64,000 nucleotides of DNA from Escherichia coli (GTDB lineage Bacteria > Pseudomonadota > Gammaproteobacteria > Enterobacterales > Enterobacteriaceae): NCBI RefSeq assembly GCF_030384885.1, contig NZ_CP128613.1; one strand, given 5' to 3'. Shown here in pieces: positions 21,258-47,467 of the stretch (the stretch's first letter is position 1; each line of letters starts with the position of its first letter). The position numbers were made by a program, and so were the translations under genes. Under the pieces are notes generated by a model. It did not search any database, was not told the DNA's origin, and saw only the letters and a list, made by a program, of their open reading frames with translations.

Positions 21258-21869
21258 GTGAATCGTTTTGTAATTGCTGACTCCACGCTCTGTATCGGCT
21301 GCCACACCTGTGAGGCCGCCTGTTCAGAGACGCATCGCCAGCACGGCCTGCAATCAATGCCGCGCCTGCGAGTGATGCTAAATGAAAAAGAATCTGCGCC
21401 GCAGCTCTGTCACCACTGTGAAGATGCACCCTGTGCGGTGGTCTGCCCGGTTAACGCTATCACCCGCGTTGATGGGGCAGTGCAGCTGAATGAAAGCCTG
21501 TGCGTAAGCTGCAAACTGTGCGGCATCGCCTGCCCGTTTGGCGCAATCGAATTTTCCGGCAGCCGTCCGCTGGATATTCCGGCAAACGCCAATACCCCGA
21601 AAGCACCACCGGCACCGCCTGCTCCGGCGCGTGTCAGCACGTTGCTTGACTGGGTGCCGGGTATTCGCGCGATCGCCGTCAAATGTGACCTCTGTAGCTT
21701 TGATGAACAAGGTCCAGCCTGCGTGCGGATGTGCCCAACCAAAGCCCTGCATCTGGTGGATAACACCGATATCGCCCGCGTCAGCAAGCGTAAGCGTGAG
21801 CTGACCTTTAACACGGACTTTGGCGATCTCACCTTGTTTCAGCAGGCTCAAAGTGGAGAGGCTAAATGA
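21258..21869 (+). CDS. hycB: Formate hydrogenlyase subunit 2, 4Fe-4S ferredoxin HycB, 203 aa
   Basis: Multiple CxxCxxCxxxCP motifs. Confidence 0.9.
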   Translation: MNRFVIADSTLCIGCHTCEAACSETHRQHGLQSMPRLRVMLNEKESAPQLCHHCEDAPCAVVCPVNAITRVDGAVQLNESLCVSCKLCGIACPFGAIEFSGSRPLDIPANANTPKAPPAPPAPARVSTLLDWVPGIRAIAVKCDLCSFDEQGPACVRMCPTKALHLVDNTDIARVSKRKRELTFNTDFGDLTLFQQAQSGEAK

Positions 21870-23692
21870 GCGCAATTTCCCTGATCAATAGCGGCGTGGC
21901 GTGGTTTGTTGCCGCCGCTGTTCTGGCATTTCTCTTTTCTTTTCAAAAGGCGTTAAGCGGCTGGATTGCCGGAATTGGCGGCGCGGTGGGTAGCCTGTAT
22001 ACGGCAGCCGCAGGCTTCACTGTGCTGACTGGCGCGGTTGGCGTGAGCGGCGCGTTGTCGCTGGTAAGCTACAATGTGCAAATCTCTCCGCTTAATGCGA
22101 TTTGGCTGATTACCCTCGGCCTGTGCGGTCTGTTTGTCAGCCTTTACAACATTGACTGGCATCGCCATGCGCAGGTGAAATGCAACGGTTTGCAAATCAA
22201 TATGTTGATGGCTGCTGCCGTCTGTGCCGTCATTGCCAGCAATCTGGGCATGTTCGTAGTAATGGCAGAAATCATGGCCCTGTGTGCGGTGTTCCTCACC
22301 AGCAACAGCAAAGAGGGCAAACTGTGGTTTGCGCTGGGGCGTCTTGGCACTTTGCTGCTGGCGATTGCTTGCTGGCTGCTGTGGCAACGTTACGGCACGC
22401 TGGATCTGCGCCTGCTGGATATGCGCATGCAACAGCTGCCGCTTGGTTCCGATATCTGGCTGCTCGGTGTGATTGGTTTTGGCCTGCTGGCCGGGATTAT
22501 CCCGCTGCACGGCTGGGTGCCACAGGCTCATGCTAACGCCTCTGCGCCAGCTGCCGCGCTGTTTTCCACGGTGGTGATGAAAATTGGCCTGCTGGGTATT
22601 TTAACCCTGTCTCTGCTGGGCGGTAATGCGCCGCTGTGGTGGGGAATTGCACTTCTGGTACTCGGCATGATCACCGCGTTCGTCGGCGGTCTGTATGCGC
22701 TGATGGAGCACAACATTCAGCGTTTGCTGGCTTACCACACTCTGGAAAATATCGGCATCATCCTGCTGGGGCTGGGCGCTGGCGTAACGGGTATCGCGCT
22801 TGAACAACCGGCGCTGATTGCCCTTGGCCTGGTCGGTGGTCTGTACCATCTGCTTAACCATAGCCTGTTCAAGAGCGTACTGTTCCTCGGGGCTGGGAGC
22901 GTCTGGTTCCGTACCGGTCATCGCGATATCGAAAAACTCGGCGGTATTGGCAAAAAAATGCCGGTTATCTCCATCGCCATGTTGGTCGGTCTGATGGCAA
23001 TGGCTGCGCTGCCACCGCTGAACGGTTTTGCCGGGGAATGGGTTATCTATCAATCCTTCTTCAAACTGAGCAATAGTGGCGCGTTTGTTGCTCGTCTTCT
23101 CGGGCCGCTGCTCGCCGTGGGGCTGGCAATTACCGGTGCGCTGGCAGTGATGTGTATGGCGAAAGTTTATGGCGTTACTTTCCTTGGCGCGCCGCGTACC
23201 AAAGAAGCCGAAAACGCCACCTGTGCGCCGCTCCTGATGAGCGTAAGCGTAGTGGCACTGGCGATTTGCTGCGTGATTGGCGGTGTTGCTGCGCCGTGGC
23301 TGCTGCCGATGTTGTCTGCTGCCGTACCTCTGCCGCTGGAGCCTGCTAATACAACCGTTTCTCAACCAATGATCACGTTGCTGCTGATTGCCTGCCCGCT
23401 TCTGCCATTCATCATTATGGCGATTTGCAAAGGCGACCGTCTGCCGTCGCGTTCCCGCGGCGCTGCCTGGGTATGTGGCTACGACCATGAAAAATCAATG
23501 GTGATTACCGCTCACGGTTTTGCCATGCCGGTGAAACAGGCATTTGCGCCAGTGCTGAAACTGCGCAAATGGCTGAATCCGGTGTCGCTGGTACCAGGCT
23601 GGCAGTGCGAGGGGAGTGCGTTGCTGTTCCGCCGGATGGCGCTGGTTGAACTGGCGGTACTGGTGGTGATTATTGTTTCACGAGGAGCCTGA
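21866..23692 (+). CDS. hycC: Formate hydrogenlyase subunit 3, membrane antiporter-like HycC, 608 aa
   Basis: Polytopic membrane protein; operon position. Confidence 0.9.
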   Translation: MSAISLINSGVAWFVAAAVLAFLFSFQKALSGWIAGIGGAVGSLYTAAAGFTVLTGAVGVSGALSLVSYNVQISPLNAIWLITLGLCGLFVSLYNIDWHRHAQVKCNGLQINMLMAAAVCAVIASNLGMFVVMAEIMALCAVFLTSNSKEGKLWFALGRLGTLLLAIACWLLWQRYGTLDLRLLDMRMQQLPLGSDIWLLGVIGFGLLAGIIPLHGWVPQAHANASAPAAALFSTVVMKIGLLGILTLSLLGGNAPLWWGIALLVLGMITAFVGGLYALMEHNIQRLLAYHTLENIGIILLGLGAGVTGIALEQPALIALGLVGGLYHLLNHSLFKSVLFLGAGSVWFRTGHRDIEKLGGIGKKMPVISIAMLVGLMAMAALPPLNGFAGEWVIYQSFFKLSNSGAFVARLLGPLLAVGLAITGALAVMCMAKVYGVTFLGAPRTKEAENATCAPLLMSVSVVALAICCVIGGVAAPWLLPMLSAAVPLPLEPANTTVSQPMITLLLIACPLLPFIIMAICKGDRLPSRSRGAAWVCGYDHEKSMVITAHGFAMPVKQAFAPVLKLRKWLNPVSLVPGWQCEGSALLFRRMALVELAVLVVIIVSRGA

Positions 23693-41182: not shown

Positions 41183-42144
41183 ATAATCCCGGCCTGATAG
41201 AAATCCTGCAGGTTAATCGCGCCGACGAGTTTGCCGTTTTCATCTACCACCGGTGCGGCGGTGATTTTGCGTTTCATCAGAACTTCTTTGGCGTCGATGG
41301 CGCGGCTTTGCGCCTGTAATGTGGTGCCGCCTGTCGTCATCGCTTCATTAACTGGCGTGGTGAGTGCGCCGCCGCCAACCAGCCAGCGACGTAAATCCCC
41401 GTCGGTAAAGACGCCTTTCACCAGCCGTTGATCGTCGCACACGGCTACCAGTCCCAGACCGGTGCGACTAAGTTCCAGCATCGCATCCATCACGCTGGCG
41501 GTTAACGCCACCTGCGGGATGGCGTCATCACGGCGCATCAGATGATGCACTTTGTTCAGCAAGCGAGCGCCCAGAGCCCCAGCTGGGTGGGAGCGGGCAA
41601 AATCTTCTTCATTAAATCCGCGCGCCTGCATGACCGCCATCGCCAGCGCGTCGCCCATCATCAGGGTATTGACGGTGCTGGAGGTCGGCGCAAGATGCAT
41701 CGGGCAGGCTTCGCGTTCTACAGAGATATCCAGCACCGCTTTCGCCGCCAGGCCCAGCGGTGATGTCGGTTTACCGGTCATCGCCAGCAGCGCGATAGAT
41801 TTGTCTTCTAGACGCGGAATAATCAGATCCAGTTCCTTTGCGCCACCGGAGTAAGAGATAAACAGCATCACATCGCGGCTTTCAATCATCCCCAGATCGC
41901 CGTGCAGTGCTTCTGCCGGATGGACAAAAAAAGCAGGCGTGCCGGTACTGGCAAGCGTTGCGGCGATTTTCTTACCAATGTGGCCCGATTTGCCAATTCC
42001 CGAAACCACCACTTTGCCTTCGCAGTGCAGGATGATATTGGCGGCGCGAACAAAATCATCGCCCAGACGTTCTGGTAAACGGCTTGCTTCCTGCAACTCC
42101 AGCATTAACGTCTGACGTCCCGCGTTCAGTAGTGCTTCACTCAT
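41179..42144 (-). CDS. gutQ: Arabinose-5-phosphate isomerase GutQ (SIS + CBS domains), 321 aa
   Basis: SIS-domain sequence; last gene of the srl/gut operon. Confidence 0.9.
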
Positions 42145-42910
42145 TGCTCTCTCCGGTTATGATCACATCGATCCCTTTCTCTTCCAGCGCCTGACGAAAC
42201 GCCGGATCGATACCTGCGTCGGTAATTAGCTTATCGACGCTTTCAAGACTGCAAACTACGTTGGGGCTTTTACGGCCAAACTTTGATGAGTCCGCCATCA
42301 AAATCACTTCGCGCGCGGCATTACACATCGCTTTACTGACGGTATAGACCTCGTTGAAGGTGGTTACGCCTGCATTGAGATCGATGCCATCGGTGCCCAT
42401 AAACAATTTATCGAAGCTGAAATGTTCGAAGGCGTTCTCTGCCAGCTGCCCGTGAAATGAGGCCGATTTTTTACGAAATGTGCCGCCTGGCATCAGGATA
42501 GTTTGTTCGTTATCCAGTTCGGATAGCGCATTGACGATGTGCAGGCTGTTGGTCATCACCGTGATGTTATTAAAGCGCGAGAGCAGAGGCACCATCTGTA
42601 ATACGGTACTGCCAGCATCAAGAATGATTGAATCGCCATCATGAATAAAACTGACGGCAGCTTCTGCAATCAGCTCTTTCTTGTGGGTGTTGATGAGCGT
42701 TTTATGATCGATAGGTGGATCGGATTCCTCTTTATTTAACACCACGCCGCCATAGGTACGAATGACGGTTCCAGCATGTTCCAGAATGACCAGATCTTTG
42801 CGAATGGTTGTGCCTGTGGTGTCAAAGTATTGCGCCAATTCTTCAACCGAGCATTTCCCCTGCTTTTGCAGATACTCCAGAATGGCGGCCTGACGCTGAC
42901 GAGGTTTCAT
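42137..42910 (-). CDS. srlR: DeoR-family glucitol operon repressor SrlR/GutR, 257 aa
   Basis: DeoR HTH; operon position. Confidence 0.9.
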
Positions 42911-42976: not shown

Positions 42977-43336
42977 TTATCCACGTTTCAGTTTAAGCGC
43001 CAATGATAGAGCATTCTGTGATAGTGGATCATGGGGAAAGATCACATCGGGCTGTAAATCAGCAGAATGCATGCCTGTAATTGCGGGAATTTTTTGCGGT
43101 CGGGCGAAGACGGTCAGTCCTTTCATAAACAAGGTGTCGACGATGCGTTGCTGATCGTCCAGCGCGATGGCGACCACGACCCGCGGTTTAAAGCGCCCGC
43201 TGGAACGGCCCACGCCAACCCGCCCTTGCTGGCATAGTGTGTCGAAGGCACGGTTAAAACGAGAAATTTGCCAACCGCCTAAGGCCAGTTGCGCACACCA
43301 GGCGATAACGGCGACGGTGATGAGTGCGGATACCAT
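42977..43336 (-). CDS. gutM: Glucitol operon activator GutM, 119 aa
   Basis: Operon position and size. Confidence 0.85.
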   Translation of the reverse strand: MVSALITVAVIAWCAQLALGGWQISRFNRAFDTLCQQGRVGVGRSSGRFKPRVVVAIALDDQQRIVDTLFMKGLTVFARPQKIPAITGMHSADLQPDVIFPHDPLSQNALSLALKLKRG

Positions 43337-44606: not shown

Positions 44607-46144
<1,538 letters not shown>

Positions 46145-46185
46145 TTATTGTTTTATTACCAAACGGCAACCTAATCTAATCAGAT

Positions 46186-46258
46186 TGAAAGATTTAAAAG
46201 TGTTATTTTGATCGCAAAATGAAAGATAAATATTTTAACTTGAAAGTTTAAATGAAAG
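46186..46258. promoter_or_regulatory. Four direct TGAAAG repeats in the srlA upstream region (candidate operator/activator sites)
   Basis: TGAAAG at 46186, 46220, 46241 and 46253 in AT-rich context. Confidence 0.4.
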
Positions 46259-46381
46259 GATAGCGAGGAGAATGAGTTGAGTTATGTAAAGTCCGTATCG
46301 GGCGGTGACTACCGCTTCCTTGTGCGGGGCGTGATGCTTTACCATACTTGCCCCTGGTTGAATCTGTTAAATGGACCCCTC

Positions 46382-47467
46382 ATGTTCAAGCGTCGTTATG
46401 TAACATTGCTTCCCCTTTTTGTGTTGCTTGCCGCCTGTAGCAGCAAGCCAAAACCTACTGAGACTGAAACGACCACCGGAACGCCGTCTGGCGGCTTCCT
46501 GCTTGAGCCGCAGCACAATGTGATGCAGATGGGCGGTGACTTCGCTAACAACCCGAATGCCCAGCAGTTCATCGACAAAATGGTGAGCAAACACGGTTTC
46601 AATCGTCAGCAGTTGCAGGAAATTCTCTCCCAGGCGAAACGTCTGGATTCGGTATTGCGGCTGATGGATAACCAGGCACCAACCACATCGGTGAAGCCGC
46701 CATCAGGTCCGAACGGCGCATGGCTGCGTTATCGCAAAAAATTTATTACGCCGGACAACGTGCAAAACGGCGTGGTTTTCTGGAATCAGTATGAAGATGC
46801 GCTGAATCGTGCGTGGCAAGTGTATGGCGTACCGCCAGAAATTATCGTCGGGATTATCGGCGTTGAAACCCGTTGGGGGCGCGTGATGGGGAAAACCCGT
46901 ATCCTCGATGCGCTGGCAACGTTGTCATTTAACTACCCACGCCGCGCGGAGTATTTCTCTGGTGAGCTGGAAACCTTCTTGCTGATGGCGCGCGACGAGC
47001 AGGACGATCCGCTCAATCTGAAAGGCTCGTTTGCCGGTGCGATGGGCTACGGTCAGTTTATGCCATCGTCTTATAAACAATATGCAGTGGATTTTAGCGG
47101 CGACGGGCATATCAACCTGTGGGATCCGGTTGATGCCATCGGTAGTGTGGCGAACTATTTTAAAGCGCACGGCTGGGTGAAAGGTGATCAGGTTGCGGTG
47201 ATGGCAAACGGTCAGGCTCCAGGCTTACCGAATGGCTTCAAAACCAAGTACAGCATTTCACAACTTGCTGCAGCTGGACTAACGCCACAGCAGCCGCTGG
47301 GCAATCATCAGCAGGCCAGCTTACTGCGCCTGGATGTTGGCACCGGTTACCAGTACTGGTACGGTTTGCCGAACTTCTACACTATCACCCGTTACAATCA
47401 CAGCACCCATTACGCAATGGCCGTCTGGCAGTTAGGACAAGCCGTGGCACTGGCGCGCGTTCAGTAA
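46382..47467 (+). CDS. mltB: Membrane-bound lytic murein transglycosylase B, 361 aa lipoprotein
   Basis: Lipobox LLAACSS after signal peptide; start at internal ATG (MFKRRYVTLL). Confidence 0.9.
   Translation: MFKRRYVTLLPLFVLLAACSSKPKPTETETTTGTPSGGFLLEPQHNVMQMGGDFANNPNAQQFIDKMVSKHGFNRQQLQEILSQAKRLDSVLRLMDNQAPTTSVKPPSGPNGAWLRYRKKFITPDNVQNGVVFWNQYEDALNRAWQVYGVPPEIIVGIIGVETRWGRVMGKTRILDALATLSFNYPRRAEYFSGELETFLLMARDEQDDPLNLKGSFAGAMGYGQFMPSSYKQYAVDFSGDGHINLWDPVDAIGSVANYFKAHGWVKGDQVAVMANGQAPGLPNGFKTKYSISQLAAAGLTPQQPLGNHQQASLLRLDVGTGYQYWYGLPNFYTITRYNHSTHYAMAVWQLGQAVALARVQ

Follow-up and report, generated by a model that had tools for sequence, protein, structure and literature searches.

What is the role of a hexamer that recurs, always in the same direction, in the DNA immediately upstream of the srl operon of Escherichia coli, and which protein would read it? 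The srl (gut) operon, a textbook PTS system for a sugar alcohol, has two regulators that make an unusual pair, the repressor SrlR and GutM, a genetically defined 'activator'. Inactivation of srlR raises srlA expression 8-12 fold (PMC5094792), and GutM is referred to as an E. coli activator in a passage of PMC5723342 that cites the original work. We found no mapped DNA site for SrlR or GutM in the searchable literature; its full texts, which do not extend to the early gut-operon papers or to RegulonDB and RegPrecise, hold no footprint, EMSA, ChIP or SELEX of SrlR on the srl promoter and no report that links CTTTCA/TGAAAG to either protein. Papers by Yamada and Saier from 1987 and 1988 reportedly defined the gut operator region. 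An earlier note on this locus had described four direct TGAAAG repeats and offered them as candidate binding sites for GutM, SrlR or a nucleoid protein.

A cluster of TGAAAG upstream of srlA

The window, that is, the whole 64-kb stretch of E. coli DNA analysed here, carries TGAAAG on its + strand at 46186, 46220, 46241 and 46253, with gaps of 34, 21 and 12 bp, just as the earlier note had it. All four copies lie in the 255-bp spacer (46127-46381) between the divergent genes srlA and mltB, in DNA that is indeed AT-rich, with a GC content of 28% over 46150-46270 vs 53% for the window as a whole. From 46000 to 46500 the sequence is 100% identical to that of E. coli strain 2013C-4282, in whose annotation the flanking genes are likewise srlA and mltB.

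The four-copy cluster is not due to chance. Shuffling the spacer 5000 times with its dinucleotides preserved never packed four non-overlapping copies of any one hexamer into 73 bp, and 5000 shuffles of the AT-rich core did so 10 times. The 64-kb window contains one other cluster of this kind, formed by TGCTGC at 23267-23322, which lies inside an ORF of 608 aa (21866..23692) and looks like a coding repeat. TGAAAG is also enriched across the window (59 copies vs 34 expected, a level reached in 0 of 100 shuffles) and strongly skewed to the + strand at about 46-58 kb, a skew that probably reflects codon usage or gene strand. The motif positions in the window show no cluster upstream of gutM or srlR inside the srl operon, and Rfam returned no match in 45900-46600 at E up to 1.

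Organisation of the srl promoter

Read on the strand of the srl operon, the motif is CTTTCA, and its copies begin at -65, -99, -120 and -132 from the srlA ATG. We refer to the first three as the P, M and D boxes (Table 1). Promoter positions are counted from an inferred start near 46167, assuming that CRP is centred at about -41.5; the distance from the CRP site to the putative -10 hexamer fits a CRP centre of -41.5 or -42.5 relative to that start. srlA has been described as a class II CRP-activated gene (PMC8916003). The CRP site is kept as TG(T/C/A)GATC...TAACA/TAAAA in all lineages compared, and the counterparts of the -10 hexamer in other genera read TAAAAT or TATTAT. With respect to these elements, and with the start placed as above, M abuts the CRP site and P precedes the conserved -10. 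A sigma-70 consensus scan did not match the srl promoter, in keeping with a CRP-dependent promoter whose -35 is poor; the sole match, at 46370..46341 on the - strand, is at chance level.

Table 1. Features of the srl control region and operon (window positions), with conservation of the promoter elements in 73 Enterobacterales species
Feature	Position	Strand	Remarks	Conservation (73 species)
P box, CTTTCA	46186..46191	-	25 bp downstream of the first base of the CRP half-site; about -24 to -19, in the -35/-10 spacer	exact in 46, CTTTCG in 16 more; 1.63 bits
M box, CTTTCA	46220..46225	-	abuts the 22-bp CRP site, its end 3 bp from the core TGCGA; about -58 to -53	exact in 63; 1.81 bits
D box, CTTTCA	46241..46246	-	21 bp upstream of M; about -79 to -74	exact in 69; 1.86 bits, the top conserved promoter element
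Fourth box, CTTTCA	46253..46258	-	12 bp upstream of D; about -91 to -86	exact in none; 0.30 bits at this position
CRP site, TGCGA-N6-TAACA	46198..46219	-	core halves 46212-46216 and 46201-46205; between M and P; read from sequence	mean 1.59 bits
Inferred -10 hexamer, TAGATT	46173..46178	-	last six bases of a conserved TGATTAnnnT block	
Spacers between elements				mean 1.26-1.41 bits
Unconserved flank				mean 0.25 bits
srlA	45563..46126	-	ATG at 46126; annotated likewise in an identical E. coli record	
mltB	ATG at 46382		annotated likewise in an identical E. coli record	
gutM	42977..43336	-	genetically defined 'activator'	
srlR	42137..42910	-	DeoR-family repressor gene, end of the srl operon	

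Conservation in the Enterobacterales

srlA loci were taken from 80 species-level Enterobacterales genomes, 73 of which could be anchored on the CRP half-site. This conservation analysis, which the earlier note had named as a check, came out differently for different copies: P, M and D are kept across the order and outrank every other part of the promoter in conservation (Table 1), and K-12 and the other E. coli examined lack the fourth copy. The 21-bp and 34-bp spacings between boxes are invariant throughout the Enterobacteriaceae. Box variants of the form GTTTCA occur in Buttiauxella, Cedecea, Xenorhabdus and Brenneria.

Individual genomes depart from this layout in ways worth recording. In E. 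coli WP5-S18-ESBL-07 (L093), the nearest sampled relative over the 73-bp stretch 46228-46300, the D box is damaged and reads TGAAGG in place of TGAAAG, a natural variant that could alter sorbitol regulation. In Kluyvera sichuanensis (L063:1255-1500), the whole promoter block lies about 125 bp farther from srlA, with boxes at -246, -225 and -191. Since the intervening DNA contains AAGTAAGTGACTGGGGTGAGCG, which we take to be the ERIC2 primer sequence, it appears that the srlA leader of this species has acquired an ERIC/IRU repeat. Yersinia artesiana (L078:1300-1500) has its CRP site and boxes about 100 bp farther upstream, with the CRP half-site at -187, which implies either a long leader or inserted DNA between promoter and srlA.

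srl promoters of more distant genera

SrlR homologues of 64-71% identity were used to pick whole operons from more distant genera (Erwinia, Pantoea, Pectobacterium, Xenorhabdus, Rahnella, Sodalis, Brenneria, Rosenbergiella and Edaphovirga), to which Yersinia and Serratia were added. The upstream neighbour of srlA varies by genus (a umuC-like gene, a transporter, a transaldolase and others) and is mltB in none of the distant operons, yet every one of these srlA promoters has a strong CRP site ringed by CTTTCA/TGAAAG-type boxes. The boxes are inherited with the srl operon and not with mltB. When all hexamers were counted, with the CRP site masked, in the promoters of the eight lineages that cannot be aligned with E. 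coli (Yersinia, Erwinia, Pantoea, Pectobacterium, Xenorhabdus, Rahnella, Rosenbergiella and Sodalis), CTTTCA/TGAAAG ranked first, with 16 copies spread over 8 of 8 sequences vs 1.3 expected (z = 13; 0 of 1000 shuffles). GATCTA/TAGATC, found upstream of srlA in Erwinia (L082), Pectobacterium (L084) and Sodalis (L089) among others, came second in this count, with 7 copies vs 0.44 expected, shared by 4 of the 8 lineages; part of this signal comes from a TTTCGATCTA block that overlaps the inferred -10 and includes a Dam site.

The boxes of these promoters are quantised in their offsets from the CRP half-site, at -42, -30 and -9 for direct and -21 for inverted copies. Serratia, Brenneria and Edaphovirga retain the direct -30/-9 pair, i.e., the 21-bp D-M spacing. 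Yersinia and Rahnella have copies at -21 and -9 that form an 18-bp palindrome, TGAAAG-N6-CTTTCA, of which Xenorhabdus has a version with a GTTTCA right half; such a palindrome is typical of a site for a dimeric HTH protein. The junction CTTTCA-N3-TGTGATC is found in Serratia, Yersinia, Rahnella, Brenneria and Edaphovirga, and in its GTTTCA form in Xenorhabdus. In Erwinia, Pectobacterium and Rosenbergiella, nTTTCG boxes resembling P directly precede the -10, and the promoters of Serratia, Yersinia, Rahnella, Brenneria and Edaphovirga lack a P box. We considered one continuous 21-bp array and rejected it, with P at +25 falling off the upstream lattice.

Two still remoter operons, with SrlR at 49-54% identity, carry TGAAAG or TGAAAC. 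One of them is on a metagenome-assembled contig (L097) with a second srlA-srlE-srlB set immediately after srlR. This set has its own CRP-like site, GGTGA-N6-TCACA, and 3 bp beyond that site TGAAAG (L097:2892-3092), the mirror image, on the promoter-proximal side, of the CTTTCA-N3-TGTGA junction.

These comparisons bear on the possibility that no specific protein reads the boxes and that they reflect either chance or AT-rich architecture, be it UP-element-like, curvature or sites for H-NS, Fis or IHF. The 28% GC of the promoter region would be in keeping with this, as would the mild enrichment of TGAAAG across the window and the placement of M, which lies upstream of a class II CRP site in the zone where the alpha C-terminal domain of RNA polymerase contacts DNA. 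Nevertheless, we regard it as very improbable: besides the failure of spacer shuffles to reproduce the clustering, the hexamer stays exact while the AT-rich DNA between boxes varies, and it recurs in both orientations and at fixed offsets in promoters that cannot be aligned with E. coli. The nucleoid protein of the earlier note fares no better, in that it fails to explain an exact hexamer at fixed offsets amid diverging AT-rich DNA.

Origin of the fourth copy

The fourth TGAAAG hinges on one base, the G at 46254. In place of the repeat, the + strand has TAAAAG in K-12 and in three further E. coli strains, and K-12 MG1655 accordingly has three boxes only. The 73-bp stretch 46228-46300 is matched at 99% identity or better in 4 of 5409 complete E. 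coli genomes. Because it differs by one base and the allele is present in so few genomes, we read the fourth repeat as a recent, rare, single-base gain; among the four copies, it is the only one for which chance is a fair description. Counted from the CRP half-site, it lies at exactly -42, a position occupied by a box in Erwinia and Pectobacterium and by a GTTTCA variant in Xenorhabdus, and a box lies 1 bp off this position in Serratia silvae, Rosenbergiella and Sodalis. The fourth box might slightly raise the affinity of a repressor, or have no effect.

Candidate regulators

Since the boxes are conserved, fixed in position and co-inherited with the srl operon, the prediction that they are binding sites for some operon-specific regulator is strongly supported. 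Only two regulators, SrlR and GutM, are passed on with the operon. SrlR has the Pfam domains HTH_DeoR and DeoRC, shares 35% identity with its paralogue AgaR, and is encoded in 11 of 11 more distant proteobacterial srl operons examined. On DNA, DeoR-type regulators form tetramers or octamers (PMC10991401), and such oligomers suit a set of hexamers that are spaced by 12 bp and 21 bp and face either way. As in DeoR-type operator arrays, we find a clustered short core (three copies in K-12), a cognate regulator and conservation of the motif. We therefore favour SrlR, as the DeoR-type HTH protein of the operon and as a paralogue of AgaR, whose promoters are full of CTTTC repeats, and consider it likely that the CTTTCA boxes are recognition elements of this repressor, forming a candidate operator array. 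The analogy with AgaR is no proof of shared specificity because the recognition helix is alike across the DeoR family; for the same reason a comparison of the recognition helices of SrlR, AgaR and GatR was uninformative as evidence of specificity. Counting against SrlR, boxes centred near -55 and -76 would also fit the positions of an activator.

GutM is the protein to which such positions point. It could bind the boxes near -55 and -76, beside CRP, and help to recruit RNA polymerase: D and M sit at positions of the class I type for a co-activator, several lineages carry the upstream boxes only, and GutM is the activator of the genetic model. Moreover, gutM is present in every proteobacterial srl operon examined, so that co-inheritance cannot separate the two proteins, all 11 operons carrying both. 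The predicted structure of GutM speaks against it. Its only Pfam matches are to its own family, and the AlphaFold2 model (pLDDT 85) consists of a long hydrophobic N-terminal helix, a small three-stranded domain and a C-terminal helix, without an HTH or RHH. Compared with the PDB, in which GutM has no sequence relatives, the model gave weak, IscU-like folds as its best matches (TM-score about 0.45) and no DNA-binding folds. Firmicute GutM is predicted to have a membrane anchor, DNA binding there being the part of a PRD regulator (PMC5723342); the one Firmicute-type operon inspected (L101), which has GutM and a PRD regulator but no SrlR, contains no CTTTCA/TGAAAG in the 274 bp upstream. A P box in the core promoter, furthermore, suits a repressor and not an activator. 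Binding of the boxes by GutM is thus improbable; on the strength of the structural model, GutM is probably not their DNA-binding partner and may act at the membrane or on SrlR instead of on DNA. The earlier suggestion of sites for the operon regulators thus stands in its general form, with conservation, fixed positions and co-inheritance behind it and SrlR as the favoured reader; the part that named GutM, a protein with no recognisable DNA-binding fold, does not find favour.

A global regulator with a TGAAA-like half-site, such as the IclR-family proteins PlaR and KdgR or the LacI-family protein Cra, would be a reader from outside the operon. Genomic SELEX and gel shift detected binding of PlaR (YiaJ) to the mltB-srlA spacer, which was classed as a low-affinity target; the PlaR box, ATnTGAAACnnnGTTCAnTT, includes TGAAAC (PMC6958661). 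GTTTCA variants of the srl boxes occur in several genera. However, the spacer (46127-46381) contains neither the PlaR box nor a Cra-type palindrome, CTGAAWCGWTTCAG, at up to 3 mismatches. The E. coli boxes, running in one direction 12-34 bp apart, are unlike the palindromes of IclR or LacI proteins, and even where srl boxes are palindromic TGAAA and TTTCA stand eight bases apart, whereas in the PlaR consensus as printed TGAAA is separated from GTTCA by four. A global regulator appears even less probable as reader than GutM, and SrlR remains the reading that we develop below.

Proposed mechanism and significance

From the geometry of the promoter, we infer the following mode of repression. An SrlR oligomer would occupy D and M, which are two helical turns apart and adjoin the class II CRP site on its upstream side; in the Enterobacteriaceae it would additionally occupy P, inside the -35/-10 spacer. 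Such occupancy would shut CRP and RNA polymerase out of a CRP-dependent promoter until a sorbitol-derived inducer freed the DNA of SrlR. Repression at the core promoter cannot be general, as P is missing in several genera; the conserved core would instead be interference with CRP-dependent activation from the upstream side, with P as an extra block. A fuller version, which we put forward tentatively and consider rather unlikely as a whole, has SrlR acting mainly as an anti-activator at the class II CRP site, with the CTTTCA positions, the one in the core promoter included, as its operator, GutM acting on SrlR or the transporter, and the G at 46254 restoring an ancestral box and tightening repression.

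The layout of the boxes turns a loose model of 'repressor and activator' into specific questions, namely which of the boxes SrlR needs, whether it competes with CRP and whether GutM contacts DNA at all, and it provides a usable motif for annotating SrlR regulons across the Enterobacterales. Sorbitol use is a trait on which selection acts, and loss of srlR is known to be selected in the mouse gut. With loss of operon regulation being adaptive in the gut, the fourth box described here and the D box of WP5-S18-ESBL-07 are indicated as natural cis-regulatory variants.

Comparison with known systems

Most likely, the boxes constitute a DeoR-type operator array flanking a CRP site, an ordinary control element that would not surprise a specialist and may already be described. 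Among the paralogues, the operators of AgaR and the predicted operators of TagR have a similar core, and the gatY promoter shows no enrichment of it. Two AgaR control regions contain same-strand CTTTC(A/G)TTT repeats in excess (6 copies vs 1.1 expected and 7 vs 1.9), some of which adjoin a CRP-like site. The AgaR operators of the E. coli aga regulon were reportedly defined by Ray and Larson in 2004 (cited in PMC12226905 and PMC10991401). The aga copies are more numerous and denser, with 11-bp steps in places, whereas the srl boxes are fixed at -30, -9 and +25 around one CRP site; binding to the aga regions has been footprinted, whereas the srl boxes are known here from sequence. AgaR is reported to be tetrameric (PMC10991401).

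TagR, a DeoR-family protein of the tagatose cluster of E. coli Nissle, has a predicted operator, tagO1 (CTTTCAAAATGAAAGTAAA), by a CRP site (PMC12226905). Like SrlR, it is a repressor of a sugar catabolic cluster, and tagO1 has the same hexamer in both orientations; the tag operators differ in overlapping the transcription start, and are predictions, not mapped sites. For GatR, a third DeoR-family protein, the K-12 gatY promoter is not enriched in CTTTC (1 copy vs 0.5 expected). The region upstream of K-12 gatY (L087:8206-8512) carries ATTTCA/TGAAAT elements close to a CRP-like TGTGATC site, one of them being ATTTCA-N8-TGAAAT, which suggests a related nTTTCA core that differs in its first base.

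At the level of architecture, GlpR, also of the DeoR family, binds glp promoters as a tetramer on tandem operator units with a period of about 20 bp, comparable to the 21-bp D-M spacing and the -42/-21 unit period of srl; its recognition sequence is different, and its half-sites are palindromic 10-mers. As for the interference with CRP proposed here, CytR, which belongs to the LacI family and needs CRP for cooperative binding, offers an analogy of mechanism only: a specific repressor that adjoins CRP, sitting immediately beside it and neutralising CRP-dependent activation.
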